Source: Azolla caroliniana (taxonomy: Eukaryota; Plantae; Polypodiophyta). From it: a DNA stretch of 64,000 nucleotides. Under the pieces are notes generated by a model. That model made no database searches. It worked only from the letters and a program-made list of their open reading frames with translations, and had not been told where the DNA came from. Where the stretch lies: assembly GCA_043228905.1 (NCBI GenBank), contig JBHGNT010000015.1, forward strand, positions 9,486,001-9,550,000, read 5' to 3'. Numbering within the stretch: position 1 is the first letter of the stretch; each line of letters opens with the position of its first letter. Positions 15,732 to 63,616 of this stretch are shown piece after piece. The translations under genes and the position numbers were made by a program.

Positions 15732-16949
15732 TGTTAGCCGGCCAGCAAGGGAAGTCCAGAATGGGAAAAGGGGGATAATTAATAATCGGGAGCTAATTAG
15801 TTATAATATAGAATTATTGTTTTGAGAAGTGAACGGACGAACCCGGAATCGGTATGTCGATCCGGATTCGGACCGGTTTGTAGCCGATTGCCGGTTGGCA
15901 TTGGTTTGTACCTAAAGCCGGAGACCTATAAAAGGGCCCGGTTAGATTGTAATCAGGAGCGGATAATTAATAGAGTGTTGTTGTTCTGTATCTTAATCAT
16001 TGTTAATTACCATTTTGTGCTAATTATAATTTATCCTACGCGTGTATTGTGACTAATGATCTTGCTGCTTAGTAACCAATTAGGGTTCCATTAATAGTCG
16101 GCCTAACTTTATCTCACCGCAACACCCCTTTGGTGAAGTGTCTCAAAGGGACACCCTGTGTTAGGCCATTGTCCAACCCTAGCGATAACACAGTTTTTGG
16201 CGACCATGATTCCTGCACAAACGCAACGAACAACGACGGGCATGGATGACTAGACCAACAAACGACCCGGTTACGGAACGAGCAAGAAGACTTGTCGAAC
16301 GATTGCGAAAGCGAGAGGATTTCGAACAGGTGGCAGAAGAGCTCCATGCGGATCGGTCATTTTCCAAAGTAATCCGGCGAGTGGCCGCGGAGTCACTACG
16401 CGGGCAGCAGAATTCCCAACCGGATGAAGGAAGCAGCTTGAGCAGTCTTCGGGACACGGAATCCATTCTGCAGGCACTAGCGACAGGGGGAGGCGATTAG
16501 GAACCGTTCTCAGCCTTCGAATCGGATTCAGACGGCGAATGCAGCGCCCATTCGAATTACCATAGCAGCCACGATACCCCAGCAGACCGGAGGACGAGCA
16601 GTCGGATACCTTGCCGACACTAGAACCAGAGTTAACGGAACTGGAAGCCCCAGATCGACAAGTGGCGGATCAACTTCCGACATCGCCACGTGAGACATCG
16701 AAAGAATAGGAGGAAAGACCTCCGACAACGAAAGAAGAGGAGGGGAGACCTTCGACACTAGACGACGACATGCCGTTCCAATATCCCAAGTACCGGGATG
16801 ATCCGGACGTAGAAGCTCATGTCTATGCATTTTTGCAAACATGGGAAGCAAACCATGTGTTGCAACGCTTGACCGCCGTCAAAGCAGAAGACTCGAAGAT
16901 TGCAGAGTTCGGCATGACCTTGGAAGGACCAGCCGCACGATGGCGCTTG
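15732..16949 (+). mobile_element. 5' LTR (15732-~16190), PBS and gag N-terminus of a non-chromoviral Ty3/gypsy element
   Basis: TGTTAG...GATAACA with TATA box CCTATAAAAG; PBS TGGCGACCA at 16198; YPKYRDDPDVEAHVYAFLQTWEANH is homologous to YSKFCEGVDAEVHVRDFLTTWEINH at 54830. Confidence 0.8.
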
Positions 16950-16953
16950 ACGC

Positions 16954-17922: not shown

Positions 17923-17994
17923 ACCTCTGCTCCGGATACGTGATTTCCATAGACGAACCATAACACTCGGTAAAAAACAAGAAGGGAAGAATGG
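17923..17994 (+). repeat. 72-bp inverted repeat, copy of 29076-29147
   Basis: ACCTCTGCTCCGGATACG...GAAGGGAAGAATGG; one mismatch to the reverse complement of 29076-29147. Confidence 0.95.
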
Positions 17995-20900
17995 GTTGTT
18001 CTGTCGTCTGTTGTTGTTGTTCCTCCTCCTCCTGTTCCTGCGGCTGTGGCTGCTCTTCTTGCCGCTCCGGCTCTAGCTGTGGCTGCTACTGGTTGACGTC
18101 CGTTGCTTGCGGCTCTATCAGTCTGACTGGCTCTGTCTCCATTTCCGGCGCTACCGGTTTTGGCATCTCCTGGTTCTGCTGTCCGGCGTGCACCGGTTCC
18201 TACGGACGACCTTCCTTTAGCGGCTCCTCCTGAGTACTATCTGGTTGGCTTCCCCCGGCTTTAACCGGCGTTTGTTCTGAAGATGGCTCTTCGTAACTAA
18301 TGCTAATCGTCATAGTTTTCTTGGCCACTTCTTGTCGTCGTTGTTCCCGTTCGTACTTTTTGAAACGGAGTTGGTTGTCCAGCTGGTCATCATCTAGTTG
18401 TGCCACCAACTAGCGTACCGCCACCCTCTGCTCATCAGCCAAGGATATGAAATCATCCGACAGTTCATCTTTTATTGTTTCAATGCTTTCTTTATCCAGG
18501 ATGTAAACTTCGTCGCCCTCTTTATGCCGGTTTTCCGCATCTGCTCGCAGCAACTGTAGCTCTGCTGCTTGCTTAGCCCACTTCGACCACCACTGTACTG
18601 AGCTTTCTTCCCCCAATTTCTTTGTTCGATTCCTCCATGCCAGTACGATGTCCTGGATCCATCCCAGCCCCATCTTCGAGTTGTTTTCCGCGGCCTATTT
18701 TTCATCCTTCAATTGTTTGATCAAGCTTGCGGTTGCCACTTCTTGGCTTCTGTAGTGCATGAGTTGGGTCTGATATGTCGTCTGAACTCTGTTCAGAGTC
18801 ATTGTAGGGCGCTCTGTTTCCGAATGGTGCTACACTTGCAACTCCAGTCGCTCTTTCGCTGCTGCCGCCAGTTGTTTCGCTACTTCGGCTCCCTTCGACT
18901 GCTCTTCCATCAATGCCGCCATCAACCGGTTAATTTCCTCCCGGAGTTCCTAGCACTTTTCCTACTGCCGGTCACTTTCGGTAGTCAATTTCTTATGATC
19001 GGCATCCAAATGCTTATAATCTCGGTGTAGTCGGTTTTCTGTTTGAGCTTTTGATTGATAAACCAATGAGTGTGGTCCTCATGGTCTTTTTGTTGCCAAA
19101 GCTCTTCTTTGAGGTGCTCAATCTCCACTTCTGCCATCCTCCGGAGTTTCTCTTTTTCTTGCAAGAGTTTGTCTTTCTCTTCTTTCAGCCGGTCATAGGC
19201 TTGATGACCTCTTCTCAAGCTTTCCTCTGTTCGGAGTTCCTTGCACTTTTCCTGCTGCCGATCACTTTCGGTAGTCAATTTCTTATGGTCGGCATCCAAA
19301 TGCTTATAATCTCGGTGCAGTCGGTCGAAGTCGTCAGTTTTCTGTTTCAGCTTTTGATTGATAAGCCAACGAGCGCGGTCTTCACAGTCTTTTTGTTGCC
19401 GGAGCTCTTCTTTGAGGCACTCAATCTCCACTTCTACCATCCTCCGGAGTTTCTCTTTTTCTTGCAAGAGTTTGTCTTTCTCTTCTTTCAGCCGGTCATA
19501 CGCTTGATGACCTCTTCTCAAGCTTTCCTTTGTTCGGCGGAGGCTGTCGGCCGTTCTCCTTTGTTCCTCCTCCGCCGCTTTTTTCAATTCTCATTCCCTG
19601 GCTCGTAAGTCTTTCCTTAATGTGGCGAGCTCCTGTGCTAACGATTTATGAGTATCTGGGCCTGCCGCTTTCATCGGGGTTTGATCGTTCTGTAGAGTTA
19701 CCGGGGCCACCGGTTCCGATTGTTGTGGTCCTTCAATGACCAACTTGGCCATTTCTGTTCTGGCCCTCTCTATGTCTTCCTCCATGCTCCGGATTCTTGA
19801 CCGGGCCTTCTCTAATTCCTCGGTTGTGGCTAGCAACCAGTCTTCATGCGCTTTCTCTTCCACTTCTAACTGGCAGACGACCCCAATCACTTGTTCTGCT
19901 ACCCATCAGAGCCATTGACTGTCGGTGCCTTGTTGTCGTGTTGGTTCTGGTCATGGGATGGCGTTTTCATTGGTCACGAGCCTACTATTGACGGTTACGT
20001 CAAGCGGCCACTCCAGTTCTGGCTGTTGTTGCTGCGGCGGCCATGCCGGCAATTCAATGACCGATTCTTGATCCACCGGTACTGCCGTGTCCTGGACTGC
20101 GGGTTACGCGATGTCCTACCGTAGCACTTGCTTCGTCCCCGATTCTTGTTGAGCCAATTCTGCCGCCTTCCTAGACTGCGGCTCCTCAGGGAGGGCTTCC
20201 AGTATAATATCCTCCATTGGCCTTGATGTTCCCCCTTCGTGGCCCTTTTCACTTGTCTGGCGACGACGTAACAACGCCTCCGTCGGCTCGTCTTCCTATT
20301 GTTCTTCCTCTAGGGTCTTGTTGTTGATTAACGCTGCCAAGGGGTCCCGCCCTGCGTTTTCTCCAGTTGCTATTCTGCTTGTTGTTCTGAAAGGTGCAAC
20401 TTGATTTTCAACGGTCTCCTTGAGGTGTCCACCGATGCGTCCTTCTCTGCCAGCCGCTTCCGATTAGGCCGTTCCTTCGCCCGAGTAGCCACGAGTTGCT
20501 GCCGTTTTGAAGCTGTTTTGGGGGTCGATTTTGTCGGTCTTCCCCTCTTTCTTTGTTTCATGGGCTCCACCGGCGGTGCTAATAAAGCGAGCCATTGTGC
20601 CACTGTTGTCCACATCTTTTTGCCATCTTTTATTGAGATGATGACAACGCTCAGGCCGTCGGCGATCATTATTGGCCAATCTGTTACCCCGTACAAGATG
20701 TACGGAGAGTCAAGTGTGATGAGCGAGGGTCGAATGTTATCATGATGTTGTTGTGTATGTGTAGGGGGCATAAATGTAATTGTGAGTCTATACGTATGTG
20801 AACACATGCACACGTGTGTGCATGTGGATGGATACGAGGAGGTGTGAGTGAGTGTCCAGTATGAATGCTCGAGGGGGCTTACACCCCTATGTATCTACCC

Positions 20901-23900
20901 CCTCTTGTACTATTTAACCCCTTATGGGGAATGAATGAAACATGAATAACCATTTCTCTCTCTCTCAATCTCTCTCTTGTCATCTCTCTCTTTTATCTCC
21001 CCTTACGTTGAGCCCCCTTGGGAGGGGGGTGGAGCCATTCTAGGCACCATCCCCCACTCCACAATGCTTCTCTATGCTTCTCTATATGATCTCTCTCACA
21101 ATCATACTCTCCATCACTATGTCTATCTTCATTACCAATCATCATAATTATGACCAATAATCAATCATGATTATCATTAACCCTAACCCTAAAATCATAC
21201 AACACCTTTTGGCGACCACTAAGGTGACCCCCCTTTGAAGACGGAGTCGAAGAATGATACATGGATGGGCAAGCCATAGCGACTAAGTGCAAGAAATGGC
21301 GGAAACGTGCAAATGACGATGACAATGTTCGGCGAAAGTATGTTTTGTGCAAGTCAATGTGTCAATGTGCGTGGTTCCGAAAGCGGTTAGCGACAATGTG
21401 TGTGTTTCGAATGCGTGGTGCAAGATGCACAGTTGGACAAACAGCGACGCAGAGGGAACCGACGCCATCACGACCGGAAAGAGAAGCCCACCCGGAGACT
21501 GCAGTGGAAGACGTGGTGTGTGGAGCGGAGGCCGGCAAAATGTGCTGAGAATGCACGAGAGATGGTTCCAAACGAAGCAACAAAGAGTCGGAACCGGAAT
21601 CGGAACCAGACCCAAAGTTGGTTAACATAGAAGGGCCAATGTAGACAGAGAAGGAGACGCTGTCGTTGACGAGACATTGACGGCCAGAAAAACTGACAAC
21701 GCCCAAAAGACATGGACGACTGACTACACAATATCAAAACAAAACGAGGCAACCAGACAAGCTAGACTGCACAAGCACAGATAGAGACGAATGGACGGGC
21801 GAAAAGGAAGCATACAGACTCAAGCGACTCAAGCGAAAACGAGTAGGAAAGAACCGGACAGATGACCGAGAAGACGGACCAGACGCACAACCAAAAGACA
21901 ATGGACAGACATCCGGATGAGTGGCCAGAATGCACAAAAGTGGCCAATGTGGCCGCACAGCTGTAAAAGAGAAGCCGGTGTGGCCGGATAGGAGCGGAAG
22001 AACGGTTGATAACAACCAGAATGGCGACACGGGACAGAGATGGAGAAGCGGCCGGAGTGTCCAGACAGGCCCGAACAAAGACGGATGAGCAACGGCTATA
22101 GACACATTGAAATGGGCCAAATAGGACTACCGGATCGGAAAACGAAGAGCGGTCAAACTGGTCGGATAACAGTCAGAGCGGCCAAACTAACTGGACAAAC
22201 AGTCGGAGCAGCCCGAGAAGCGGTTGGACAACAACCAGAATGGCGACACCACACCGAAAAGCGACAAGAATGGTCGGATAGCCGATGGCTGGAACGGCGA
22301 TGATGTTGAAACGACAGGTCGGACAACCGAACAATGGCTGGAGGGCTGGACAAACAATAACAACCAGATCTGACTGACTGACCGGATGGAGTCGGAGACA
22401 CAGATAGACAGCCAGAAACAACGGACGGGCCGAACATCATCGACCGGAGCAGCCGGATGATGCGGTAGCAAGCAGAAGGATAGGAAGCAACAACAATGGC
22501 GGTGGTAGAAGAAGAAGAAGACAGAAAGGAACGGAACATAAAGATGAATTAGAAACAAGAAGAAATCACAAAGAAAAGAAAGAAGAGAAACGATGAAACA
22601 AAGAGAAAGAGAAGCAGTGGTACCATAACAGAGAAGAAAAAGAAGAAGCGGCAAAAGGAAGAAGAAAGCACGCGAGAAGAAGAAGAAGAAAATAGGAAAC
22701 AACACAAAAGAGGAAAAGGAACCAAAAGAGGAGACGAAGATGCAAGAAAGCGCAGAAGAAGGGAAAAAAAAAAACCTAAAATAAAATTGAAAATAGAGGG
22801 AAAAAGAAAAGAAAAACATAGGGGCATGTGAAGAATTTCGGAAACATGAGTGTAGACCAACAAATTTTAAAAACAAGAGGGCACCACCAAAATTTTGAAA
22901 ATCCCCAAGACTACTCACACACACTCAAAACAAAGGAAGAACATACATATACATGACATGATTTTGGACCCATGACGAAGTTCGTAAGTCGACAGAACGA
23001 GAATGTTCGTGTCGCGGAAGATTTGCTGACCGACAAAGATGTTTGAGTCAAGCACTCCGATCGAGGGAGTCGATCAATGAAAGGACCGATGGAAGTTCCC
23101 GTCGAAGAAATATCATCATCAAGGCATGTGGGATTTGATGTACAAGGTACTATCCCACGGGCGTGCCATATTTTGTTACCCCGTACGAGATGTACAGAGA
23201 GTCAAGTGTGATGAGCGAGGGTCGAATGTTATCATGATGTTGTTGTGTATGTGTAGGGGGCATAAATGTAATTGTGAGTCTATACGTATGTGAACACATG
23301 CACACGTGTGTGCATGTGGATGGATACGAGGAAGTGTGAGTGAGTGTCCAGTATGAATGCTCGAGGGGGCTTACACCCCTATGTATCTACCCCCTCTTGT
23401 ACTATTTAACCCCTTATGGGGAATGAATGAAACATGAATAACCATTTATCTCTCTCTCAATCTCTCTCTTGTCATCTCTCTCTTTTATCTCCCCTTACGT
23501 TGAACCCCCTTGGGAGGGGGGTGGAGCCATTCTAGGCACCACCCCCCACCCCACAATGCTTCTCTATGCTTCTCTATATGATCTCTCTCACCATCATACT
23601 CTCCATCACCATGTCTATCTTCATTACCAATCATCATAATTATCACCAATAATCAATCATGATTATCATTAACCCTAACCCTAAAATCATACAACACAAT
23701 CCACCTGTACTCCCTCGTAGGTAGCTATGATAAAACTGACACTATTCCTGGGCATCGCTGGTGGTCGGGAGTATACATGACCATACTCGTGGAGTACCCG
23801 AGCAATTTCTCGAAACAATAGGTCTTCATCGCCTTGCGTGCGGTACGCCTTGCTGCCTATGGAGTATTCACCGAAATACCTCGTCAACAGCTCTTGTGAA

Positions 23901-29075: not shown

Positions 29076-29162
29076 CCATTCTTCCCTTCTTGTTTTTTAC
29101 CGAGTGTTAGGGTTCGTCTATGGAAATCACGTATCCGGAGCAGAGGTTCTGAACTCTCACGT

Positions 29163-31847: not shown

Positions 31848-32190
31848 AGTGTTGTTGTGTGAATGTGTAATGTGCACGAGAACGAGTGAAAGTGTGGGTG
31901 TGAGTATATGTGTATGTGAACACATTGACATGTCTGTGCATGTGTACAGATAGAAAAGGGTATGAGTGAATTATGCGTGTCACAGTGGATGGCTTGAGGG
32001 ACATGCACCCCTATGTATCTAACCCTCATTCTATTACCATACGAGATGTACAGAGAGTTTAGTGTGATGAGCGAGGGTGAAGAGACTTAATGTTGTTGTA
32101 TATACGATTATAACTGTGAGTGTGAGTGTGAGTAGATACATATGTGAACACATGTCGATGAGAAGGGAGGATGTTTATGCTCGAGACAAA
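31848..32190 (+). mobile_element. Rearranged fragments related to the 20682/23174 LTR
   Basis: ACGAGATGTACAGAGAG..GTGTGATGAGCGAGGGT and CACCCCTATGTATCTA are shared with that LTR. Confidence 0.65.
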
Positions 32191-38956: not shown

Positions 38957-39138
38957 GTCGAACCAATGTGCGAGGCCGCCCAAGCATAATTGAACCATCT
39001 CGTCTTCGTCGTTGATTGAGCCAAGTGAGTCGCAAATGCTCTTGATCTTGGCGGTTTAGTCCGACATGAGCATATTTTTTTGTTGTATGTTGTTCAACTC
39101 TTGCCAGAGTTGAAGGTTGCAGGATGTCGTGTTGGCGG

Positions 39139-42100
39139 TGTCAAGAAGATTGTGGTTGTGTGTCGCAACCGCCGGGGTTCTGTGACTCGGGGATGATCGG
39201 GGTGAAAACGCATAATCGCAGATGGTGCAATGACAAGAAGCAGAGAAGGCAAGATAAATGTGACGTTGTCGCGAAAAGAATTTTATTTGTAAAACAACCA
39301 CTTACAATATTTATTTGCCAAAAGTTACCTGGCAAGACTTGAACTTGCAAACTCTATTTTGAGAAGAAACGTTTGTGATAGACCACTTCAATCTCTTTGG
39401 TTTCTATTTAATTGTCTTCTCTTTCACTTTATATATACTAAATTTATATTACAAAATTTGATTACCAAAAGAAGTTATTCTAAGAGGATTCAAACTCACA
39501 ACCTTTTGTTTACAAGGAGACATTTGAGATATAATTTTGTTCTACTTCTTTTCTTTTCTTTAAATCTTGTCTTGATTTCTGCAGGCCACCATCTTCTTTG
39601 GCGAGCTTTGCATCTTACACCCACACGAGTTTGTTGACTCACTTTTCCTTTCTCCTCTTCTTCCTCTTCTCCTCCTTTGCCCCATTCTCTTTAGCCACCA
39701 TAGGTGTGGCTTATATAGGGTGGTCAACCGCCCTACCACCCTCTTGAGGCGGTTGTATTTTTATTTATTTCTTTTCTTTATTTATTATTTATTTATTTAT
39801 TGATGCTACAATTCAATTTTATAGTTCTATATTTGAGAAATTATAGAAATAGCCCTCATTTAATTTTGACATAATTACATTTGTGTCCAAGTAACATTAA
39901 TCCTTCCGAAGCTTGTATCTTGGGCTTCTGAACTCCAATTCACGAACCAAAAATTCATTCATGCTCCTTGTCATAAGCTCCTGATGGGAAATGTACTTCT
40001 ATAGATTTTTGACATTGTTTTCACATCGTGAAGTGTCAACTTCACGACACCCACCCCCTCTAAACTTGCACACCTATGGGCGAGTTCACACCACTTCATT
40101 TTGATCCTCTTCGAAAAATTCTTCATCCTCATTTACTATGAAACTAGGTTCGGTGTCTTCTCTTCTTTGAAAAATCTTTATTCTTTTTCCCGCAATCGGC
40201 GTCTGTATCTCAGTCCCATCCAACTCGTTCAGGTAGTAGGTAGCCTTATCAGTCACCTTCCATACTTCGTAAGGCCCAAACCACCGTTTTGCGAACTTCC
40301 TCATTGTACTATACTGGTTCTCGAGGCTACTATCCAGTACCAACACCCAGTCTCCTTCTTGAATCTTTCGTGGTCTTAATTTGTTTACTTTGTCAAATCT
40401 TGCTTTGTTCTTTATCCGAGCTTCCTTCAATTTCTCAGCAGCCTTTTCTACATCTTCTGCTTGACATTGTAGTTGTCGGATATGGACTGCTAGCAAGTCT
40501 TCTCTACTCATCTCTGACTCCCATGGTAGCATTGCCCATGTAGCAATCTTCTCTTCAATCAACATCATCGGCCTTTGTCTTGTCATGAGCTCTATCGGCA
40601 TATATCCTGTCACCGAATTGTGTGTGGTCCTATCTACCCACAATGCATATGGCAAGACCTTCGGCCAATTACCTACTTTGCCTTTACATGCTTTTGCAAG
40701 TGCTTTAACTATCGGGCTATGACCTCTTTCTATCTTTCTATTTGCCTCAAGATTATATGCAGTTGTCAATGATAACCGAACCAATTCTATCAAAGAACTC
40801 TCTTGCTTCATCAGAATTGAGCTCACTTCTCTCAGTCACTATCTTCCCTATACACCCATACCTACATATTATATCCTCTAATATGAATTGACATACTGCC
40901 GATGTGGTCTTCAATCTTAGTGCTCTTCCTTCAACTTGATTTGTAAGGTCTTCTCTAGCAAGTACCAAGAACTTCTTTTGACTGGCCCCCATTGGCATTG
41001 CCACTATATCAACCATCCACTTGTAATGTATAGCAGGCGAATAGGTCAGGTGCAACTCATCTATATGCTTAATGTTGGAGTAGATTTGACAGGTTGGGCA
41101 TGTCTCGACATACCTCTTGATTTTGTTGTAGAATCCTGGCCACCAATATCTTTCCTTTATTTTACTAAACGTTGCCTAGACTCCACGGTGTCCAGCCCAC
41201 TCCCTATCATGTAATTCCTTTAATATCTGCTCCCGCTGCACTTGGTCACAGATAACCCGTTGTGGATTTCCCATTTTATAATTTGGGTGCTTCCAAAGGT
41301 AACTTTTGTGCAAGAAAAATCAGTGTGCCTTCTTTCAGAAATTTGAGAAGTTTCTCCCACTCCAAGTTCCTTCCTTCCATGGTGCTTGTAGATACTTCCC
41401 GATTTCCTTAAACTCTTCATTTACTCTTCTTCTTTAAACTCATGTTCTTCATGTGGATCACCCCCTCTAATTGCATTTATGACCAAAGTTGATTCTTCTT
41501 CGTCGCTATCTGATTCTGCCACTTCCTCTTTTTCATATTTTGCTCTGGATAACATATCAGCCATTGCATTCTTCTGAATCTATCATACCTCCACCTTGTA
41601 ATTCTTTTTCTATTTTTTGGAATTTCTTTCCTTTGAAATCTTCTATTATAGTTGCGCCATCTACCGACGCAACATATAATTTACCTTTATCTTCAATGTT
41701 ATGAAGGGCCTGCTCTAGAAATCCTGTACGAAATCCCCCACATCTCGTAGTGGATGATCTCATAGATTCTCCTTATTCCTCTCATGATTTGGTCGAACAG
41801 TAAGGAACTATACCGACCTCTTCCCATCTTGGCTTTGAATCCTAGCAAAAGCCGCTCCATTATCAATGACTTTAGTCTCCATACGCACTGCTATGATGTA
41901 TGTTTGCCCTAGGATTACTGAATAAAATGACCTCTCTTGGACGAAGAAGTTTTGATCTATTGACACGTCCCCAAATGTAACTTTAATATTTGGGCATGCG
42001 CCACATAAATCCTCCACGATCTCAGTCATTGCTCTCACCTTCCAACCATGGTTCCTTTCTATTGGCCATCTCCCACGATTGTAAAAATCAGACGATATGA

Positions 42101-45100: not shown

Positions 45101-45146
45101 GATTTTTGACATTGTTTTCACATCGTGAAGTGTCAACTTTACGACA
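39139..45146 (-). mobile_element. Ty3/gypsy element with both LTRs (39139-40049, 44218-45146), gag-PR-INT, RT/RNase H deleted
   Basis: TGTC..CGACA LTRs; 4-bp TSD GCGG/GCGA; PPT GAGGGGGTGGG; PBS TAGTGAACCCAACATGAA (decayed tRNA-Trp type, from memory); gag ISKFNGEDVTQFL; protease ALIDHGSEI (in a ~172-bp tandem duplication); integrase WMVDIVAMP and RWFGPYEV. Confidence 0.92.
44400..44610 (-). other. Two tandem tRNA-like (A-box/B-box) modules inside the LTR; also at 39333-39532
   Basis: Minus strand GTTGAAGTGGTA...TTTGTAAACAAAAGGTCGTGAGTTCAAATCCTC and ATTGAAGTGGTC...TACGAGTTCAAGTCTTG; no intact acceptor stem. Confidence 0.6.
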
Positions 45147-49600: not shown

Positions 49601-50066
49601 AGGACCTGGTGAGAACCGGAAGAGATCTGGAAACCGGATCGGATGGACCCGATGAGAACTGGAAGAGAAGACATATTTGTAAATATGTTTTGAACAAGTC
49701 TATTGAGGCTATATTTGTAAATAGACTTAATTTCATATAAGTATAAATATGACTTAGGGAAATCACTTTAGGTGTGTTGTTGTCATATTGTTGTCGATAT
49801 AACTGTTGTATAGAGAGAGAGGAGATACAGAGTTATACTCTGTTGTAACCACCGATTGGCGAAGATACAGAGCTCGAGGTTGTTGCCTCCGAGTCTCTGA
49901 TGTATCTTTCCTATATATAGTGATAGCTTGGAGTCTGTGGGCTCCCATGGTTTTTCCCATTAGGGGTTTCCACGTACACATTCTCCGTACTCTCTACTTC
50001 CCATTTCTGTGTTCCATTTCCATTTTTGTGATTCAAGACTTGGTTGTGGCCAAGAAATATTCCACA
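46620..50066 (+). mobile_element. 5'-truncated Ty1/copia (Tork/Tnt1-like) INT-RT-RH with 3' LTR 49555-50066
   Basis: LELVHTDVC, FWAEAL, ARLVVKGFQQ, LLLYVDDMLI, YHSRTKH; PPT GAAGGGGGAGAT followed by TGTTGG. Confidence 0.93.
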
Positions 50067-50129
50067 CTATTCTTTTCAGCATCAGACCCCAGATTTCTGA
50101 ATGGACCAAATCAGTTGTCTACCTTCGGG

Positions 50130-50600
50130 TGTGAAGCCGCGGCTTGCTTGCCATATTGGCAGTGCTCATAGAATCAGTGATCCAAGAAGGAGAGTTTGGG
50201 GATGTATCCAGCTCTAGATAAGTGCATGATGACGGCTTTGTTGAGGTGTCCAAGTCGACTGTGCCATAACGATGACATGGGAATATGTACTAGAAACAAG
50301 TCGCCCTATTTGAGTGTGACATATAGCGGGTACAATGCATGTACTTTCGGACCTCGAGCAAGCAGGAGGTTCCCCCCTATGGAGTGTCCACCTTCCTAAT
50401 TAGAAGCCAACACAAATTCTGTCTTTGTCAAGTTGTTCGACTAAGATTAGCGGTCATGAGAGCTCAAGTACATGTCAGACGTTATGTAGTACCAATGTAG
50501 AGCCTCATGGAAGGTTGAGCTCTACAATGTTGATTCCAATAATGGCACAATGTTGTGAGTTTCCTGTTGGCATAATGAGCCGATTTCTTCCACTTTGTAT
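50130..50600 (-). mobile_element. Copia GAG-pre-integrase remnant
   Basis: Minus strand LWHSRLGHLNK..EHCQYGKQ. Confidence 0.7.
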
Positions 50601-50609
50601 CCTATTGTG

Positions 50610-51714: not shown

Positions 51715-51974
51715 TGTGATAGAAATAGCGCTCGGCCACAACTGAGTTCCACAACACAAATGGGAGATTGAACAGAAAGTAACAATGCACTTACCAAGAT
51801 GAAAGAGATGACACCAAATGTTAACGTCGAAAACCCTGATTGGGAAAAACCACGGGAGCCCACAGACTCCAACTATCACTATGAGAGAAAGATATTACAA
51901 TGTGAGACTCTGAGGCAATGACCTCGAGCTCTGTCTTTGCAAACCGGCGATTACAACAGAAAATGCTTTATGTT

Positions 51975-52022
<48 letters not shown>

Positions 52023-54619
52023 TCTCTCTCTCTCTCTCTCTCTCTCTGTACAACAATAAAAGAATCACAACAACAATATTACCCTAGTCATATATATACT
52101 TATATAACTTAGGGGATATTTACAAATATGTCCTCAATGGCACATAGGAACATATTTACCAATATGTCCCTTCTCATGGTTCACAACATATCCGGTCAGA
52201 CCCCTTCTGGGTCCATCCGATCCATCTCCTTGCTTCGGCTCGTCCTACCCCATCCGGAGGGACCGGATTCCCAAGAAACTCCCCCTTCACTCCGGCATGG
52301 GGTTCCTTGTCAATCTGATCCGTCTCTAACACTCCTCCAGTTCGTCGGCTAACAACACCTTGGTCAGGATATCCGATCCGTTCTCCTCCGTGTGGATCTT
52401 CACTAGAGTGAAGTCTTGATCTTCTACTCTCTCCCAAAGCCAGTGGTATCTACCTTGGATGTGCTTCGTCCTGGAGTGGTAGGTTGTGTTCTTTGCAAGG
52501 TGGATGACACTTTGGTTGTCGTAGTAGAGCTGGTATTCCACCTGTCAGATCCCCAATTCTCCAATGATGTCCCTCATCTAGATTGCTTCCTTGTTGGCTT
52601 CCACGACCGCCATGTACTCCGCTTCCATTGTCAACAATGCAAGAGACTTATGCAGCCTCGACTGCTAGGATACGGCTCCCCCTGCATATGTCATGACGTA
52701 TCCGAATGTAGACCGATCGACTAGTGTCCGCATCAGGCTACATGTCTAAATCGGTGAATCCTTCAAGTTGGGGTTTACCTAAGCCAAATCGGAGACACAA
52801 GCTCGAGGTGGCTTTTAGGCACTAGAGTATCCCCTTGACGACGACCCAATGTTCTCTTCCCGGATTGCTCATGAACCGGCTGACCACTCTGACTGCATAT
52901 CCGATGTCCGGTCATGTACACACCATTGCGTACATGAGGCTTCCGACTGCAGAGGCATATAGTATCTTCATCATTTCTAACTTCTCTGCCTTTGTCTTCC
53001 GGCTCTGCTTTCCGGACAGTTTGCAATTTGCTAGAAGTGTCGACCCGACCGACTTAGCATCCGACATGCTAAACCTTTGAAGCACTTTTGTCACGTACTT
53101 CTCTTATGACAACCACAATTGTTTCTTCAACCGGTCCTAGATTATGTGCATCCCCAAAATCTGTCTTCCCTAACCCATATCTTTCATTGTGAATGACCGG
53201 CTCAAGGCCTTCTTCAGCATCCCGATTTTGATACAGTTCCGTCTGACGATCAACATGTCGTCCACATACAACAACAGTATCAAGAAGTCTCCTCCGTCAA
53301 ACTTCTTCACAGCAGTATCAGCAGTGGTAGGCATGCATCTTGTGGTATCCTTCATCAGTCATGAAGGAGTCGAACTTCCGATACCATTGCCGGGGGACTT
53401 GCTTCAGTCCGTATAAGCTCTTCTTCAACCGACACACCAAGTTCTCCTTCTCTTTCTTGATGAATCCCTCTGATTGCTGCATGTAGATCTCTTCCTCGAG
53501 ATCACCGTGTAGGAACGTCGTCTTGACGTCTAGTTGTTCGACCTCAAATTCCATGCTTGCCGCTATGCTCGGCACTACCCGGATGGATGTCATTTGATTA
53601 CTGGGGCAAAGATATCGTCGAAATCCACTCCTTACTTCTGCTAGAATCCCTTCACCACAATCCGGGCTTTGTATCTTGCTGGATTTCTTGCATCTCCCGG
53701 TTTCAACTTGTACACCTACTTGTTTTGGAGCGCTCTCTTTCCGTTCAGAAGCTCTGTCAGTTCATATGTATGGTTCTCATGCAGGGAATTCATTTCGTCC
53801 TGCATGGCACTCAACCATTTTCGGTTGTGGGCATCCCTCGTTGATTCTTCAAAGCTTTTCGGCTCCCTTGTCGGTTAGCAAAACATTCTCATCTTCCGGA
53901 AATCTATAGGGGGCTCTTCCCTCTCTGAGAGGATATCTCCATCCTTAGTTTTCGACAACTGGTTCCTATGTATGTTCTTCATCCGAATCCAATTCGGGGT
54001 CTTGTCCGGTTCTAGTGTCCGATTCTTCTTCTTTGGTCGGTTCGGTTTCCTGTCCGACTCCGGCCGGTTCATCAAGTGTCATCTTGTTACCCGGACAAGT
54101 GGGGAAGTGTCGGAGTCGAAAATGTAGAAGGTTCGGAGTCGGAATCAGAGTCGGAATTAGAGTCGGATCAGTATAGAGGATCGATGAGTTAGCATTTGCC
54201 GTAGTAAATCCAAAACCGAAATTATAGTTAGTTAGAGATTTTGTAGTTCTTGCCTTTTTGGCAATATGTTTTCTTGATGAGGAAGTTCTTCCAAAGGAAC
54301 CGAAGGTAGTGTAAAGAGACATCGTTTTATTTAGTAATATAAAGTTAGTTTAGGAAATCTCTATGTACGAAACACTCTGTCAATCTATTTCCTTTCTGTC
54401 ATAACTTATTACGTAAATAGCGATCTCGATGTCTATTTAAACATCAATAAGTTTACAACCATTTTAGTATCCATTCGTCTAAACCACAATTCATTGGTAG
54501 AATGTTTGGTGAGCAACGTTCAACTTATACTGTGTCGGCAATAGTTATTGTCGACCAAACAACATAGTATAATTTTGGCATGCCCGGTTACATCTGGAGC
54601 TAGCAGAGAACAAGTCGAA

Positions 54620-57600
54620 TGGATGTCGTCTGGTCCAGATACACCAGTCAGTTGTAAACGTCCTCGTACACGTTCGATTACAAAGACACTAGCAAAAGAT
54701 TCAGCTGCAGCATTACAACCAGAAACAAGTAGAAGGTGGTCTGCGCTCCCCGATTTAACTGATAGTCAGTCGGACGAAAATCAGGAGATATCATTTTACG
54801 ATATCTGGAGTGAAGACAATATGCCTTACCCGTATTCTAAATTTTGCGAAGGTGTTGATGCAGAAGTGCATGTTAGGGATTTCTTGACAACATGGGAAAT
54901 TAACCATGGAGCTCAGAGGTTATCGGCAGTAGCCGAAGACAAATCTAAAATTGTTGAGTTTGTTTTGTCATTAGATGGTCAGTCTGCTAATTGGTTTGCA
55001 CAAAATGGTTTCCGTACGTTCGAAACATTTGAACAATTAAACACCAAATTTCAGCAATTATTTGATCGTCAGATTCCTCGGAAGGATCTGATAGCGCAAT
55101 TTTATGTGTTATATGAGGAGCCGCATGAAACGGTATCTCAATTTGTCATCCGTTTTCAGAATTTACAACTCCAAATTTCCAGGCCTATTCCGGACAATGA
55201 ATTGAAGGATGTATTCCTTGAAGCAATTCCTGAACCATTACGAACAACATTAGCAGTGTTCGATTTCCGGAATCAGACGATCGAACAACTAATTGATAAG
55301 GCAATCGCTATGGGCCGGAATCCGAAAAATGTAAGGAGTATGGATATGTCGGCATTACATCATACGTTGCCAACATGGGAGGAGTTGTAGTTTCGGCAAG
55401 TAGTGCAATGTACGACTTGTTTGAATATTGCGCATTCTGCAATAGAATGTAGTTTACGAACACATTGCACAATATGTCATTCTAAACTTCATTCGGTCAA
55501 GCAATGTGAATATAATCTTTTTAACAAAACAACGACGCCGGTACGGCAAATTTTTCCGGAAAATGGATACCAAGAAACCGCTCGACAAAATAATTATCAA
55601 CAAAATCAAGATTTTTCGGCGGCACAAGATAACAACTATCAACAACACAATGGAGGTCAGTTTAAACAAAATCATTATAAGAATAAAAAATTCTATAAGC
55701 AAAAAGCGTCACGACAATTTCAACAACCCCTAGATTCTAATGAAGATGGAAATCATCAGTTTGCGCAAGGTGAAGGGAGTGGAACATTTGTTCCTACCTG
55801 CTATATTTGCCGACAAGAGACATTATGCAAATCAATGACCGTCTAATGGAAAAGGAAAAACACCGGTTATGCACATGGTCATGCCGGAAATTCAGCAAGT
55901 GACCACCAGAAGTAAAAGTAAACAATCAGAGTGGGAAATTCAGGAAGTTGTTCAGAAAGCAGCCAAGGAATGGGTAGAAGAAGCAAATAAAAACAATGTG
56001 TCCCGAATGCTCCAAGACAATGAGATCAATCAAGCCAATGAATTGCCCAGAGTTATGGCCGTACCGGAACAAGAAGAAACTTGGAAAATTTTGGCGGATT
56101 GCCAGGTATCATTACCTTTGATGGGATTACTCAAATTAGTTCTTAGGTTCACAGAGAAAGTGGCAACATTAATTGCCCAAAAAGGGACGGAACAGGCACC
56201 CGTTCATTATAATTAGCCAAGTAATAATCCTTCAATTATGGATGAGCAAAATCCTTCTATTAAAGTAATAATCCATGGGCAAGAAATAGAAGGTGCTATT
56301 GTCGATGGAGGCTCAGGCATGAATGTAATTAATAGAACTACTTGTGATAGGCTTGGCATTACCAAATGGGAAGCATGTCCATTTTGGCTAAGGATGGCTG
56401 ATACCAGTACAGTATGACCAATCGGTTTACTACGGCAGTTGGATGTCGTATTAGGAGGTCACACTTTTCAAATATCAGTAGTGGTGCTTCATTTGCAAGC
56501 TCCTGGGGCATATCCTTTGCTATTAGGTCGTCTATGGTTAAAACCTTCTAATATCAAGCAAAATTGGAATCAAAATTTATTAACATTTCGAAAAGGCAAG
56601 ACGAAAATCTGGGTGTCTACTCAGAATAAGATTACGATGAGCAAACAATGTTTGCCAATTCATGCAGAGGCCGTAAATATGATGGAAGGACTAGATGAGG
56701 TCGAAGAGAATCATTATTTTAATGATAACCCAAAAATTATCCCTTTGTTCGAAGTAGACATATTACAAGCCCTGACACCGTACATGGATTCACAAGAGGA
56801 ATTACCATTAGATAAGCAAACAATGAAAGAAATCCGAATGCAGCAGGAACCTACCGAAAGAGAAATGAAGGTATCTCAACGGGTTCAGGCTTTGGGATTG
56901 GAGGAAGTAAATTTGGAAGAAGATGATGAGGGGTTTGAACCGAAAATAGTGTTGATGGCTAAAGATATGAGACCAGCGGATAAGCAAAGGTTACTTGGGT
57001 TACTAAAGCAATATAAGGATGTTTTTGCTTGGTCTTTTGAAGATAGGAAAGGGCTAGATCCGGCTTTCTGCCAACACCAAATTAACTTGCATAAAGATGC
57101 GAAACCAGTTCAACAACGCAAGTATCATTTAAATCCTAATTATGCAATTAAAGTTAAAGAGGAAATAGATAAACTCCTGAAGGTAGGGTTTATTTGACCA
57201 GTAAAAAAAGCTACATGGCTGAGTCCAATTGTAGTTGTCCCGAAAAAGAAGGGGAAAATTTGAGTATGCGTCGACTACCGGAAACTAAATGCAGCAACAG
57301 TAACAGACGCATTTCCATTACCATTTACGGATGGGATATTGGATGCAGTCGCTGGTCATGAAATGTATAGTTTCCTGAATGGATTTAGTGGATATAATCA
57401 AGTAAGGATGCATCCAGAGGATCAAGAAAAGACAGCCTTTGTTACGGAATGGGGAGTATTTGTGGCAGTAGTAATGATGTTCAGATTAAAAATAGCTCCG
57501 GCCACATTTCAAAGGGTTATACAGGAAATCTTTGCGGAATACATTCCCTCATTTATGCAAGTTTTCCTGGATGATTTCGCCGTGTATAGTCGGAAATCGG

Positions 57601-59736
57601 AACATTTCGAACATTTACGACTATGTTTGGAGCAATGTCGGAAAGGTCGGCTCAGCTTGAATCCGGCAAAATGCGCGTTCGGAGTTACTAGTGGGGCATT
57701 GTTAGGCCATATTGTCGGCCAAGAAGGAATTGCAATTGACCCAGACAAGGTCAGGGCCATATTAGAAGCACCAACACCTACAAATGCTAAGGGCCTTAGT
57801 TGGTTCTTGGGGCAAATTAGATGGCATAGCATGATGATTAGATATCTTGTGGATGTTGCCATTCCTCTACACACAGCAGTGCATAAAGCACCTTTTCAAT
57901 GGACAAGTGTGGAACATGAAAATGTTATCTAAAGTTCTGGTGGTTCAACCACCAAACTGGAATAAACCTTTCCATGTGCTCGTTGATGCATCTGATATAG
58001 CAATTGGCAGTGCACTTATGCAGTTATCTGAACCAAACTGGTATAGACCAGTGTATTACACTAGTCGGAAACTCTCGACAGCGGAAAGAAATTATTCAAC
58101 AACTGAGAGGGAAGCGTTAGGAATGATTTATAGTATCAATAAATTTCGCCACTACCTTTTGGGCAAGAAATTTACATTCCATGTCGATCATTTTGCTCTT
58201 CTCTATTTGGTCTCTAAACAAGAATTAACTGGTAAGTTAGCACGATGGACATTACTACTGCAAGAATTCGAGTTTGACATTTTACATCGGCCAAGAGTAC
58301 AACATGCAATTCCTGATTATCTTAGCCGACTAGAGTCGGGAGAAGAAGGCATAGGTGTGCTAGACGATTTTCCGGATGGACAACTCTTTCGAGTGGAAGC
58401 AATACAGGTACAAGAAATAAATGAGGAAAGCAAGGATGCTTGGATCTCCGAGATGAAAATCTTTGTTACAACAGGGCTACCACCCAAGCATCTATCGGCG
58501 GATGAGAGGAAAAGGTTAGTTGTTCATAGTCAGAATTATTGTTTTTTGAACGATACTCTCTATCATAAAGGTGTAGACGCAATTTGGAGAAGGACAGTAC
58601 GACAATTTGAGAAATTGATAATTCTGCGAGAATCTCATTGTGGTATTGCAGGTGGTCATTATACCGGAGAAACTACAGCCCGAAAAATATGGAACAGTGG
58701 CTTATGGTGGCCGACAGTAATGAAGGATGTAGTGGACTATTGTCGAAAATGTGATTTATGTCAAAGATTGGGGCAACCCACAGAAAAGGACAGAATGCCT
58801 TTCCAACCTATTTTGCCTTTGGAGCCATTTCAAAAATGGGGATTGGATTTTGTCGGTTCATTTAAACCAGTAACCATACGCACAGGTAATCGTTACATCA
58901 TAGTCGCCACAGATTACTGTACAAAGTGGGTAGAAGCTAAACCTCTCAGGGATAGTACGGTAGCATCAACAACAAAAAATTTGTACAAAAATATATGGTG
59001 TCGATTTGGGTGTCCGATAGAATTGTTAAGCGATCAAGGTACACATCTTATTAATAAAATTGTACATGAGCTATCCACATATTACGCAGTGGTTCATAAG
59101 AAGAGGACTCCTTACTATCCACAAGCAAATGGATTAGCAGAATCGACAAATAAAACACTGCAGACAATACTCAAAAAGATAGTCAATGAAAATCGTACAG
59201 ATTGGGATCAAAAGCTTCAGAGTGCTTTATGGGCATATCGGACGTCTTATAAAACATCTATTAAATCAACTCCTTTCTGAACGGCTTTCGGATTAGAAGC
59301 CATAATGCCAGTAGAATTTCAGATTTCGACACTCCGAATACAGGCAACTAAAAAATTAAATGAACTGCAGTCAGAACAAATTCGGAAAGAAGCCTTATTG
59401 ATGCTAGAAGAAGAATGAATACATGCCATGCCAGCTTTAGAACACAAGCAAAGACAAACAAAGGCATTTGTAAATCGTCACAGACGTCAAAACGAATTGT
59501 AGTTTGGAATCGGCAAACCGGTACTAGTATTCCAAACTAAGATGGGGCCAATGCCGGGAAAATTATGATTTCGATGGATAGGACCAGTTTGGGTTGTGAA
59601 CAACAAGAATGGGGCGTATCAAGTTGGTACATTATTAGGTGAGATTTTACCAAAATGGGTAAATGGTTTACGGCTTAAACCATATCACGGGCTAATGCCG
59701 GAAAACCCATTTAAACTCGAAACTGATGCAAAGTGA
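54620..59736 (+). pseudogene. gag-pol of the 54085-63115 element (premature stops, a few frameshifts)
   Basis: Retrotransposon gag, CCHC knuckles, VDGGSGMNVI, VFLDDF, VDASDIAIG, HCGIAGGH..CDLCQR, WGLDFVG, FRWIGP. Confidence 0.93.
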
Positions 59737-59936
59737 TGTGGCATAGGTCACACAAAAAACAAAAAAAAAACTAACTATAGATAATCTTGGCAAAAGCACC
59801 TAACTGTCAAAAAGAAAATCTTGGAAAAGACTTAGACAGGCTATAAGTAAAGGCGCAGTGGAGTCATGCAACTAACACTCATTATTGTTATTCCTAACTT
59901 TTTCATTAATAGTATCGTTTCCATTCCCTAGGCATC

Positions 59937-62619
59937 ATGCAACACGTTATTTCCTTAAAACCTATTTCTGCAACGTCTATTTCACCACAGAGAGAAAAGT
60001 GTATCCGTGTTGAAAGTTTTTCTGCTCTGCCTCACCATAGCTTGAAGCTTTCTTCGCCTCCAAGACAGAACTTCGATTCATCAGACGATGACGACAATAT
60101 GGCGATTTATGTTTCTGACAACTTGCAACAATGGCTCATCAACAAAAACCTACAAGGTTTCATCAAAGTTGCAGAGGCAAAACCTCACCCTCGTGCTGCA
60201 AAGATCCTGCTGCAAATCGACGTATCCAAAATCATCAATAAAAAGGTACGTTCTATTTTGGAATTCAAAAGAGAAGGTTTCGATGTTATCTAGATAATGG
60301 ACAAGGATGTGCTCAGGTCATATTTCGAGGAATATTCTCCCTCTGCGAAGGCTTTTCAAACGCAAGGAGGCGCCGATGAATTTTTTCATGAAGTCGCCAG
60401 ATTTTTGTTGGAAGTAGGGTTTGTAAGTCCCTGGTTTTATTGTATGCCCAAGAAACGGGCCGGATTCATAATCTCCACATACGAGGGTGAAATTTTTGAT
60501 TGGGGATTGCTGTTAGCAAACGCTCTACGAGAGCAATTGTATGGGGTGCAGCAAGGGAAACCAATGAAACCAATATTTGCTCGTTGGTTGTCAGTATTGT
60601 TTCTGTCTTAGAGATTAGAAAACCAACCGAAAGAACAAAGGCCGCCACAACTACAAGCGCCCCGACCCCGAAGACAAGTGCAATAGGAAGAGTGGTAGGA
60701 AGAAGAATCGACGCATGTCAACACCACTCAATCAGAACCCGAAAAGCAACCGGCCTCACCACAACCACAACCTCAAAAACAACCCGCCACGCAGCCAGAA
60801 TCTCGACAACAACCGGACCCCAAGACCACTACACCACTGCAGTCACAAACACAACAAAAATCGACACCTGTCGGAACTGAACACACAACGGCCGCGAAGG
60901 ATGAAACAAAGATCCCAATGATTTTCTCAAACTTAGTAGGAGGAGCTTGCGCAGAAGAAACAAAGAATCAACAATAAAGCCACACATAGTGCACAAATAC
61001 CTCGCGTCAATCCTAATGATACGACCAAAGTTCAAAAAGGGCAGTCGTCAATAACAACGGCAAGAGAAGTAGTAGGCTTTGCCGACATTCCTCCAACAGC
61101 ACTTGAACTGGCAGCTATTCTACAATTCGGAACATCGTATGAGCTAGTAGAATGGTTAGCACGAAAATTACAGGAGGTATCGGAAAGAATGGCACAGGAA
61201 CAAAAGGATCAAATAATGATCCAAAAGTCATTGAGTGGAGCTGTTGAGCCGCGAGAACAACATGAATTAGATCAAATCGGCCAACATTGTAGTGCGAGAA
61301 ACAAGGGCGAGGCTATACAGATGCCACCATTACATGAGGCTCTGGTGGAAGTACATTGAGAATATGAAAAGGCCAGCCGAGCAGCCAAAGATATGGCTGA
61401 TTTATACAAAAAATCATCAGCGGCATCAGAAGTGCTAAATGCACAATGTACAAACATGAAAATGGAAAACCTGCAGTTGACGGAACAACTCTTACAAGTA
61501 GAAGAGCAACTGCAGAAAACAAGGGATGAACTATTGCAGAAGGAGTCAAGCAGACCTTTGGAGGCTGATCAAGAATTGCAACAAAAGCTACAACAAGTAG
61601 AAGCAGCATTCAAGGCGGCGGAAGCTAGAGCTGAAAAAGCTAAAACCCGATCCAAGAAACTAGAGGATCGGATACAACTAGCAAAGACGGAAATCGTAAA
61701 ATGGCTCAATGCAAAGGATGAATTGATTCAACAGCTGCGCCGAAAGTTAGCACAGCAACAGGAAGCCACGCGCCAAAACGTTGAGCAAGTGGAGGAGCTT
61801 GAAGACTATGTAAATGTACAAACAGAATATTTTGCAAAAGAGATGGTCGGAAAAGACACCTTGCTAAATGAAATCGACGAAAAATATAATAAATAGCAGG
61901 AAGAATGGGAAGTAGCTAGGGCAACTCTGGAAAAACGGTGTTCAGAAGTGGAAGTTATGTATGAAAAAAGGCGAGTTGACCTATTACTCACACAAAACAA
62001 GTTGTTGCAAACAGAAGCAGAAAATAATGCTCGAATTGATGATTTACGAAGAACATTGGCAGCAGCGCAGTTTCAGGCAAGTATAACCGAGGAAAAAATT
62101 CGAGCTATCCCAAAACGCCATAAGCTTAACACCTTGAAAATGGTGAATGAGTCCATCGATAAGGGCTGGAAAACTTGGTCGGCACAAGCAGCCAAACTTC
62201 AGTTGTTACGGGCCGGCAGGGACAATAGGAAGGCTCACGGCGAAGGTTTCTTCAAAATGACAGAAGAGGCAATATCAACTGTTCAAGAGGATATTGCTAA
62301 AGACTTGTATGAGATAGTAGCTTGCCACCGAGAAGAAGTTAGTCGAATTATGCAAGAATTCGACAAACAAGATGTCGACACAGCTGTCCAGCTAGATAAC
62401 CTTGAATCTGAAAGGCGTAACCAAACCCCAAGACTTGGAGCACCGGAAACAAAGAAACCAAGGCCATCGACCGAAGATACAAACACGTTTACAGAAACCG
62501 AAGACGAAGACGAAGACGAAGAAGACATGCCCCAACCAGAACCTTCATTGCTCGATATTCTGCAGGATGACGTGGACGACGATTTAGACGAGGACCTTCC
62601 GTCAGAACTACAGGAGTAG
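59937..62619 (+). pseudogene. Extra sense ORF3 (~890 codons reconstructed): globular N-domain, P/Q linker, long coiled coil, conserved C-domain, acidic tail
   Basis: ORF pieces 59937-60293, 60297-60611, 61393-61896 and 61948-62619 are collinear and homologous to 24286-17995. Confidence 0.85.
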
Positions 62620-62623
62620 AAGG

Positions 62624-62669
62624 GGTACTGTGGGTTCGTCGGGCAAGACCCTGGCCCACGGGTGTGCCA
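62624..62669 (+). other. tRNA-3'-end-like hairpin ending in CCA at the position of the PPT; equivalent at 23123-23168
   Basis: GGTACTGTGGGTTCGTCGGGCAAGACCCTGGCCCACGGGTGTGCCA, 2 nt before the 3' LTR. Confidence 0.75.
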
Positions 62670-63616
62670 AGTGTTACCAAAACAAGTGGGAAAGTGTCGA
62701 AGTCAGAAATGTCGAAGGTTTGAAGTCGGAATCGGAGTCGGATCGGTATAGAGGATCGATGAGTCAGCATTTGCCGTAGAAATTATAGTTAGTTAGAGAT
62801 TTTGTAGTTGTTGCCTTTTTGGCAATATGTTTTCTTGATGAGGAAGCCCTTCCGGTTGCCTATAAAAGGAATCGAAGGCAGTGTAAAGAGACATCGTTTT
62901 ATTTAGTAATATAAAGTTAGTTTAGGAAATCTCTGTGTACGAAACACTCTGTCAATCTATTTCCTTTCTGTCATAACTTAATACGTAAATAGCGATCTCG
63001 ATGTTTACAGCCATTTTAGTATCTATTCGTCTAAACCACAATTCATTGGTAGAACGTTCGATGAGCAACGTTCGACTTATACTGTGTCAGCAATAGTTAT
63101 TGTCGACCGAACACACATCCGATTTCCATCCAGATGGGTCCTTGTATCTTTCAATCGATCTTTTTCGGTCATCCTGGAGTCCGTTGTCTTCTTCTCCGAC
63201 TCCCAATCAGCAATGGCCTTGTCTTCCATGAAGACTATGTCTCGACTCCGAAAGACCTTCTTGTCTACCAAGTCCCACACTCGATAACTAAACTCATCAT
63301 CGCCGTATCCAAGGAATATGCACGATCGGGATTTCGGCTCCAGTTTCCCTGTCTTGTCCTTTGCTACATGCACGTGAGCGAGTCAACCGAACACCTTCAG
63401 ATGTTGGTAAGACACGTCTTTATCAGTCCATACTCTATGTGGTGTATCTCCTTCCAAGGGTGCTGAGGGTGATCTATTTATCACAAATGTCGTTGTCATT
63501 AGCGCCTCCGCCCAAAACTTCTTGGGCAGCTTAGCATGTGGTAAGATGCTTTGGACTCTCTCCATCATCGTTCGGTTCATCCTTTTGGCCAATCCGTTCA
63601 GCTCTAGTGTCTTCGA

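Follow-up and report, generated by a model that had tools for sequence, protein, structure and literature searches.

The window (the whole 64,000-nucleotide stretch analysed) contains two LTR retrotransposons that carry the same kind of short motif, resembling the 3' part of a tRNA, immediately upstream of the 3' LTR (Table 1). The first, on the plus strand at 20682-23696, is non-autonomous and non-coding and is referred to here as the 2.5-kb element; the second is a coding Gypsy element at 54085-63115. The letters quoted in the preliminary description at 23123-23168, the 5-nt spacer and the LTR start TG at 23174 are all present. The two LTRs of the 2.5-kb element are identical at 513 of 523 positions, with 10 substitutions and no gaps, and lie between identical CAATC target-site duplications (TSD), in agreement with the earlier estimate of about 98% identity and a perfect TSD. 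As in canonical LTR elements, a primer-binding site (PBS) follows the 5' LTR. This site, TGGCGACCAC (21210-21219), we take to be of tRNA-Arg(UCG) type, and its complementarity to the 3' motif ends after TGGC.

The internal region of the 2.5-kb element gave no tblastn match with the six ORFs of the coding element, and on 20600-23800 Rfam returned sub-threshold matches only. The final ~150 nt of the internal region (21220-23127) are high-copy and common to sister families, as seen in the contigs of four sequencing runs. The LTRs of the two elements, described before as dissimilar, gave a best blastn E of 2.4 and have only the TGTTACC start in common; the 2.5-kb element is tied to the Ty3/gypsy lineage through the motif and the LTR termini only. 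It sits nested inside another decayed Gypsy element on the minus strand, and a 72-bp inverted repeat (98.6%; 17923-17994 and 29076-29147) brackets this minus-strand gag-pol-eORF host. Neither an LTR nor a motif was found for the host element. A telomere-like TAACCCTAACCCTAAA lies near the U5 end of the non-autonomous LTRs (21178-21194 and 23670-23686), and a rearranged, 74-76% identical copy of part of this LTR lies at 31890-32154.

Table 1. Coordinates of the two motif-bearing elements (positions in the window)
Feature	Position	Strand	Remark
Non-autonomous element
TSD, left, CAATC	20677..20681	+	5 bp, perfect match to right copy
5' LTR, TG...CA	20682..21204	+	523 bp
5' PBS TGGCGACCAC	21210..21219	+	5 nt past LTR
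Non-coding internal region	21220..23127	+
tRNA-Arg(TCT)-derived motif	23128..23168	+	41 nt, CCA end; inverted PBS when the minus strand is read
T-stem 5' arm, GTGGG	23128-23132	+	followed by T-loop remnant
Inserted apical hairpin, GTAC-AAG-GTAC	23140-23150	+	within motif 23128-23168
T-stem 3' arm, CCCAC	23154-23158	+	followed by tail ending CCA
Spacer between CCA and 3' LTR	23169..23173	+	5 nt
3' LTR	23174..23696	+	TG start at 23174
TSD, right, CAATC	23697..23701	+
Coding Gypsy element
5' LTR	54085..54564	+	TSD CATCT/CATCC
5' PBS	54576..54587	+	complementary to tRNA-Arg(TCT) 3' end
Decayed gag-(pro)-RT-RNaseH-integrase	54545..59736	+	Ty3/gypsy order; Pfam matches
Extra 3' ORF region (eORF), sense	59913..62619	+	stops 10 nt short of motif
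Purine-rich 13-mer around eORF stop	62613..62625	+	46 nt from LTR, away from LTR boundary
Second motif copy, CCA end	62630..62669	+	2 nt upstream of 3' LTR
3' LTR	62672..63115	+

The coding element and its lineage

The coding element shows gag, the RT-RNaseH-integrase order, LTRs and a TSD, as expected of Ty3/gypsy. Because gag-pol and the eORF lie on the plus strand upstream of the motif, the motif stands at the 3' end of this element beyond doubt. The nearest named relatives of its integrase, at ~37-53% identity, come from Riccia, Adiantum, Taxus, Gossypium and Marchantia, which places the host among the land plants.

In the coding-element ORFs scanned, Pfam found no chromodomain (the integrase tail at 59281-59736 was judged by eye) and no second, archaeal RNase H. 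Going by the part of PMC6317226 available, the missing chromodomain match, the extra 3' ORF, the 5-bp TSD and the length of ~9 kb are shared with the non-chromovirus OTA elements (Athila, Tat), and the absence of an archaeal RNase H match with Athila, whereas Tat is distinguished by that domain. The PBSs point elsewhere: those listed for Athila in the same text are Asp, Asn and Ala, as against tRNA-Arg(TCT)-type or TGGCGACCAC here, while TatIII, Ogre and some Retand elements use a tRNA-Arg PBS, as here. In its predicted domain make-up the coding element thus resembles Athila but its PBS types do not, and we do not assign it to Athila from domain make-up alone. In that portion of PMC6317226 a PPT is the usual 3' feature of the OTA clade, and an inverted PBS is not mentioned.

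The coding element interrupts a sequence (47341-63615) that is also present inverted at 47341-49982 and that looks Copia-like by eye. A third element of the lineage begins in 15732-16950, with an LTR end at 16190, the PBS TGGCGACCA at 16198 and a gag fragment at 16761. A 47-nt patch of its LTR recurs in the motif-carrying locus L072, and its 3' end lies outside the window.

Absence of a purine tract and mismatch of the PBS

The second (plus) DNA strand of LTR retrotransposons normally starts at a polypurine tract (PPT). A purine tract adjoined the 3' LTR in 0 of 67 copies, the longest purine run in the last 15 nt being at most 4, and the earlier statement that the non-coding element lacks a PPT holds in that no such tract adjoins its LTR. 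As a positive control, the LTR element at 39138-45146 (minus strand) of the same window has an ordinary PPT at 40050-40061. In two other families, 27 of 39 copies have purine-rich 13-mers (12-13 purines) farther upstream and at no fixed distance; in the family of the 2.5-kb element, 13-mers with at least 12 purines were found in the 100 nt before the LTR in 0 of 28 copies.

The difference between 5' PBS and 3' motif noted in the window element recurs in its LTR family, where the PBS is TGGCGAC-type in 8 of 9 junctions and the motif always of TCT type. PBS and motif lie on one internal region in four cases (window, L066, L069, L085); the others are of motif-LTR-PBS order, possibly collapsed by short-read assembly. 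No TGGCGAC-type tail with a hairpin was found, though the scan pattern described below allowed such a tail. The predicted duplex between motif and own PBS amounts to -13.7 kcal/mol in the non-autonomous element vs -32.8 in the coding element. Since the PBS type differs from the motif in 8 of 9 junctions, pairing with the element's own PBS is not required.

The 5' PBSs of the window element (21210-21235), L016, L019, L066 and L069 match a tRNA over 10-12 nt only. A C-run ~8 nt past these PBSs could pair with the G-rich strand of the T-arm, giving a possible split PBS.

Conservation of the motif in sister copies

Conservation was assessed in two ways. In a pattern-free check, contigs from four runs, covering three organism labels and three studies, were aligned to 22950-23350. 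Among the variants listed, none reached at least 5% in the T-stem arms or the tail, while the apical part varied and A23142G was paired with T23148C, one base pair swapped for another. The loose ends of these contigs lead into other LTR families after the same tail.

Metagenome contigs were also scanned with a pattern that combined the 3' arm with a degenerate tail and the LTR start and left the 5' arm and hairpin free; as the pattern fixed most of the tail, tail conservation in the scanned loci is partly built in. The scan yielded 118 stretches, 114 loci and 119 matches. The core tail was present in 73 scan matches and the two window copies, and 70 had enough upstream sequence. Although the 5' arm was absent from the pattern, 68 of these 70 share a single architecture, in which GTGGG is followed by a 4-nt bulge, pairing segments of 2 and 4 nt, a 3-nt loop, the partner of the 4-nt segment, a bulged T, the partner of the 2-nt segment and CCCAC. 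Sister copies thus retain motif and spacing, as the preliminary description had implied. The remaining 46 scan matches are without the hairpin architecture; in two of them, L026 and L036, RT lies on the other strand and the match is a normal PBS seen in reverse. All hairpin loci belong to one assembly series and represent many families from probably one or a few related hosts.

The distance from CCA to the LTR is 2, 4, 5 and 8 nt in 44, 2, 26 and 1 matches, respectively. The last base of the spacer, preceding the TG of the LTR, is G in 72 of 73 matches, the exception being the window copy at 23169-23173, and the base after the LTR CA is C in 21 of 22 LTR-PBS junctions (two spurious rows dropped). 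An eORF match lies upstream of the motif in sense in 14 of the 15 loci that have one, which together with consistent LTR polarity bears out the plus orientation proposed for the 2.5-kb element. In L037 an eORF homolog lies antisense just upstream of the motif, probably through an inversion or a chimeric contig. The order motif-LTR-PBS in L016, L023, L029, L041 and L066 corresponds to head-to-tail elements sharing one LTR; some units in such contigs have diverged (79-86%), and others may reflect assembly collapse.

Within the window, the 15-nt tail occurs exactly twice, once upstream of each 3' LTR, where 0.13 occurrences would be expected with two mismatches allowed, and the covariance model found no third copy of the motif. 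Nor did the model match any non-plant-type locus among the 80 of 114 loci scanned. Viral contigs gave 9 pattern matches, none with a hairpin or tRNA; prokaryotic genome contigs gave 20 hairpin-pattern matches, none followed by an LTR start.

Structure and covariation

Before alignment, L014 and L027 (hairpin-less, with unrelated flanks) and five matches with less than 45 nt upstream were dropped; trimming at CCA and removal of L014 turned 49 distinct strings into 46 alignment rows. The compensatory changes noted earlier in the inner (apical) stem are borne out by these rows. All six apical pairs changed on both sides, in 45 cells vs 13.9 after shuffling; none of 500 shuffles reached this value and slid controls gave 1-11, although relatedness among the rows inflates the statistic. 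Counted by family group, about eight separate double changes remain in the apical stem, and one apical pair went from G-C to A-T in all three family groups.

The T-stem is 93.5% paired and invariant, and so provides no evidence from covariation. In 45 of 46 rows a pyrimidine precedes it and lies opposite a G. The preliminary description had proposed a three-tier stem, of which the T-stem and apical stem are general; the outer tier, GGCAT/GTGCC, has all five pairs in 14 of 46 rows, all from the family of the non-autonomous element, and does not covary; 4 of 37 rows exceed shuffles in any register. As family-specific and without covariation, the outer tier was rejected as a general feature. A lower-stem extension did not rise above shuffles either.

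Folding of single sequences gave a z of -1.96 for the copy at 23128-23168 (marginal) and -0.45 for the coding-element copy (not significant), and RNAalifold returned three apical pairs only, plus two unsupported pairs. With folding alone this weak, the structural support is comparative. Apical wobble and mismatch counts did not discriminate plus RNA from minus DNA, since most of these changes look like methylation decay. The hairpin is predicted at -17.5 as plus RNA and -7.9 as minus DNA, in parameter sets that are not comparable.

Origin of the motif from tRNA-Arg(TCT)

Sixty of 68 motif copies match the last 11 nt of the tRNA-Arg(TCT) found at locus L051 without a break, after which one C is missing. 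Upstream, GTGGG-T-CG is 90-100% identical to the 5' side of the T-arm of this tRNA, and the hairpin interrupts the T-loop near position 58. Fixed departures from the tRNA comprise the C missing after 11 nt, T54 to A in 24 of 68 copies and A58 to C in 15 of 68. Judged by its sequence, the motif is a retro-copied 3' part of tRNA-Arg(TCT) that lacks one C and has an extra hairpin in its T-loop. The term 'tRNA mimic' used in the preliminary description does not apply in a structural sense, as neither the acceptor stem nor the T-loop fold is retained. Neither Rfam nor ARAGORN detected a tRNA in the window motif; the L051 copies do match.

L051 (1-2055) is a tandem array of ~550-bp units, 87-94% alike, each consisting of an LTR (TGTTACC...AACA polarity), two bases, a whole tRNA-Arg(TCT) with CCA, a 5-nt spacer and the next LTR. 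Its five tRNA-Arg(TCT) copies, with Rfam scores of up to 69 bits, each have a CCA-type end (one decayed), the spacer and an LTR start. In the best-kept unit the 5' end of the tRNA, with TG before it, reads like a PBS. By these features, L051 is a TRIM-sized tandem element with an internal region that consists of one tRNA. When the four runs were aligned to L051, all of them contained contigs in which a near-whole tRNA is joined to an LTR start, three had a second LTR family after the tRNA (9, 15 and 14 contigs), and other contigs leave the tRNA at the gene end without CCA. L051-like junctions and tandem tRNA copies are present in runs X1, X2, X3 and X12. Plant tRNAs gain CCA post-transcriptionally, according to the part of PMC6317226 at hand, so the slot at the U3 end was filled from a mature tRNA.

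Tandem L051 units recall the Helenus and Cassandra TRIMs in being non-autonomous LTR elements with tRNA-derived sequence (PMC10886601, available part). In Helenus, as presented there, the tRNA-derived segment sits within the LTRs and functions as a Pol III promoter, the elements retain both PBS and PPT, and a priming role was ruled out by the author; in the elements described here the tRNA sequence lies between the LTRs with its CCA at the PPT slot, mostly without an A box. With its tRNA outside the LTRs and no PPT, L051 is therefore not a Helenus.

Discussion

In the sequences compared, the motif is a real and conserved feature, undescribed in the literature searched, and it is from its position and make-up that we infer a mechanism. 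That literature, with subscription papers mostly and Repbase outside it, yielded no account of a tRNA or inverted PBS replacing the PPT. A Drosophila gypsy study reportedly dealt with two tRNA-Lys sites. The 'two PBSs' of PMC3212995 are, in the text available, different PBSs among copies, and PMC10085805, likewise seen in part, describes ordinary PPTs. For Ty3, the accessible portion of PMC5371799 gives a layout much like that found here (TG...CA LTRs, a 5-bp TSD, a tRNA PBS after the 5' LTR and gag-RT-RNaseH-integrase), with a plus-strand signal expected just upstream of U3 and a bipartite PBS reaching the RNA 3' end. In the elements described here, by contrast, what precedes U3 is not a purine tract but a tRNA copy in sense orientation with CCA at its end; and whereas the 3' PBS segments of Ty3 pair with the tRNA and lie in U3 (same source, same portion), the present motif has the sequence of the tRNA itself and is located outside the LTR.

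The reading we prefer, at about even chances, is that plus-strand synthesis starts from host tRNA-Arg(UCU) annealed to the inverted PBS of the minus-strand DNA. The preliminary description, too, favoured plus-strand priming and held the hairpin likely to be required for replication; both are inferences. A tRNA would first prime minus-strand DNA at the 10-12-nt 5' PBS. After strand transfer, RT would copy U3, spacer and motif, and RNase H would clear the RNA, leaving minus-strand DNA that reads CA-spacer-TGGCACGCCCG, with 11 nt complementary to the 3' end of the tRNA. The hairpin may bound this site, or may loop out so that the T-arm part also pairs. The annealed tRNA-Arg(UCU) would then be extended through spacer and LTR, whereupon RNase H would remove the tRNA and integrase would trim both ends at CA. 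If the attached primer were copied now and then, the LTR-tRNA mini-elements of L051 would result. The wider picture, which we regard as evenly poised between right and wrong, would be of a plant Gypsy lineage with two host tRNA primers and no PPT, its inverted PBS captured from the primer, spawning mini-elements in which a single-tRNA interior supplies both the PBS at its 5' end and the plus-strand site at its 3' end.

Priming of the plus strand by tRNA would account for the position of the motif, the perfect match over 11 nt, the comparable length of the 5' PBS, the symmetric ends and the whole-tRNA mini-elements. The G before TG (72/73) and the C after CA (21/22) would be expected of a spacer that belongs to the cDNA end before processing; a single integrase that trims two similar ends would select for such symmetry, which places the plus-strand start at or before the spacer. 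Several observations count against this mechanism. The C deletion and the departures at T54 and A58 cost pairing with the 3' end of the tRNA, while the missing C improves pairing of the motif with the tRNA 5' end (-21.7 to -25.1 vs -17.9 kcal/mol). RNase H accepts an 11-bp tRNA:DNA hybrid as substrate, and HIV-1 suppresses non-PPT RNA primers, as stated in the available part of PMC2665208. The hairpin is also predicted to be stabler as plus RNA than as minus DNA, with the reservation about parameter sets made above, and the whole-tRNA families could stem from one old capture by template switching, without tRNA priming.

The departures just listed bear on a second possibility, unlikely in our view but deserving serious weight, namely that the plus-strand primer is the element's own RNA. 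The hairpin would limit the RNA:DNA hybrid, the GC-rich tail with its CCA end would thereby escape RNase H and be cut at the spacer, and the whole would act as a structured PPT resembling a T-arm to RT. A structure that is conserved, covarying and fixed in length, with a pyrimidine facing G before the T-stem in 45 of 46 rows, fits this well. Such a structure can bear the loss of tRNA identity at T54, at A58 and at the missing C, and the fold and the fixed departures are better accounted for than by the tRNA-primed model. The canonical logic of an element-encoded primer, as laid out in the accessible text of PMC5371799, would moreover be kept. What an own-RNA primer gives no reason for is exact identity to the last 11 nt of the tRNA across all families; the T-stem never covaries, the tail is left without a conserved pairing partner, and for the whole-tRNA versions that occupy this slot an attached tRNA primer is the simpler explanation.

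We find it decidedly unlikely that the motif functions within the RNA, during initiation or transfer of the minus strand or during packaging. Here the freed 5' end of the PBS-bound tRNA would pair with the motif and bridge the RNA ends, or the motif would pair with the PBS, and the plus strand would start elsewhere, e.g. at upstream purine tracts. The motif does pair over 10-12 bp with nt 1-12 of the tRNA, better than the natural 3' strand, and in the coding element it forms the -32.8 kcal/mol duplex with its own PBS; the PBS of Ty3 is likewise split between RNA ends (PMC5371799, in the part available), and the purine-rich 13-mers in 27 of 39 copies of two families would provide a start. However, a very high-copy non-autonomous family keeps the motif despite a different PBS (8/9 junctions) and a duplex of only -13.7, and with no such 13-mer in the 100 nt before the LTR (0/28) its plus strand would be left primerless. 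Purine tracts at variable distance would in any case not yield the observed LTR boundary, and the retention of CCA 2-5 nt from the LTR would go unexplained.

It is very improbable that the motif serves as a normal PBS, either for an antisense RNA or in an element that lies on the minus strand. The minus strand does read CA-spacer-TGG, PBS-like, and reverse readings exist, with RT opposite in L026 and L036 and an eORF antisense to the motif in L037; against this stand gag-pol and eORF on the motif strand upstream, in the window element and 14 of 15 loci, the TGTTACC...AACA polarity common to both elements and the third element, whose PBS precedes gag, and the far end of the element, which carries a PBS and not a PPT. 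That the motif has no function and has simply been inherited from an old tRNA capture is barely credible: all hairpin loci are related and from one assembly series and the single-copy fold is weak, but flanks and LTRs are unrelated between families while motif length is kept, double changes affect all six apical pairs (45 cells, as against 13.9 after shuffling), and the elements have no PPT that could take over the function.

Annotation tools that depend on a PPT would overlook elements of this kind or give them the wrong orientation, and the whole-tRNA versions would inflate tRNA gene counts. Because the two sites match different tRNAs, minus- and plus-strand priming should be separable by withholding one tRNA, and the 2.5-kb non-coding element offers a clean substrate for such a test. 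The PPT-less elements are a natural system for studying how RT and RNase H choose the plus-strand primer. That a PPT-less lineage is successful and recently active shows that the start of the plus strand can be rewired, under either of the two priming models.
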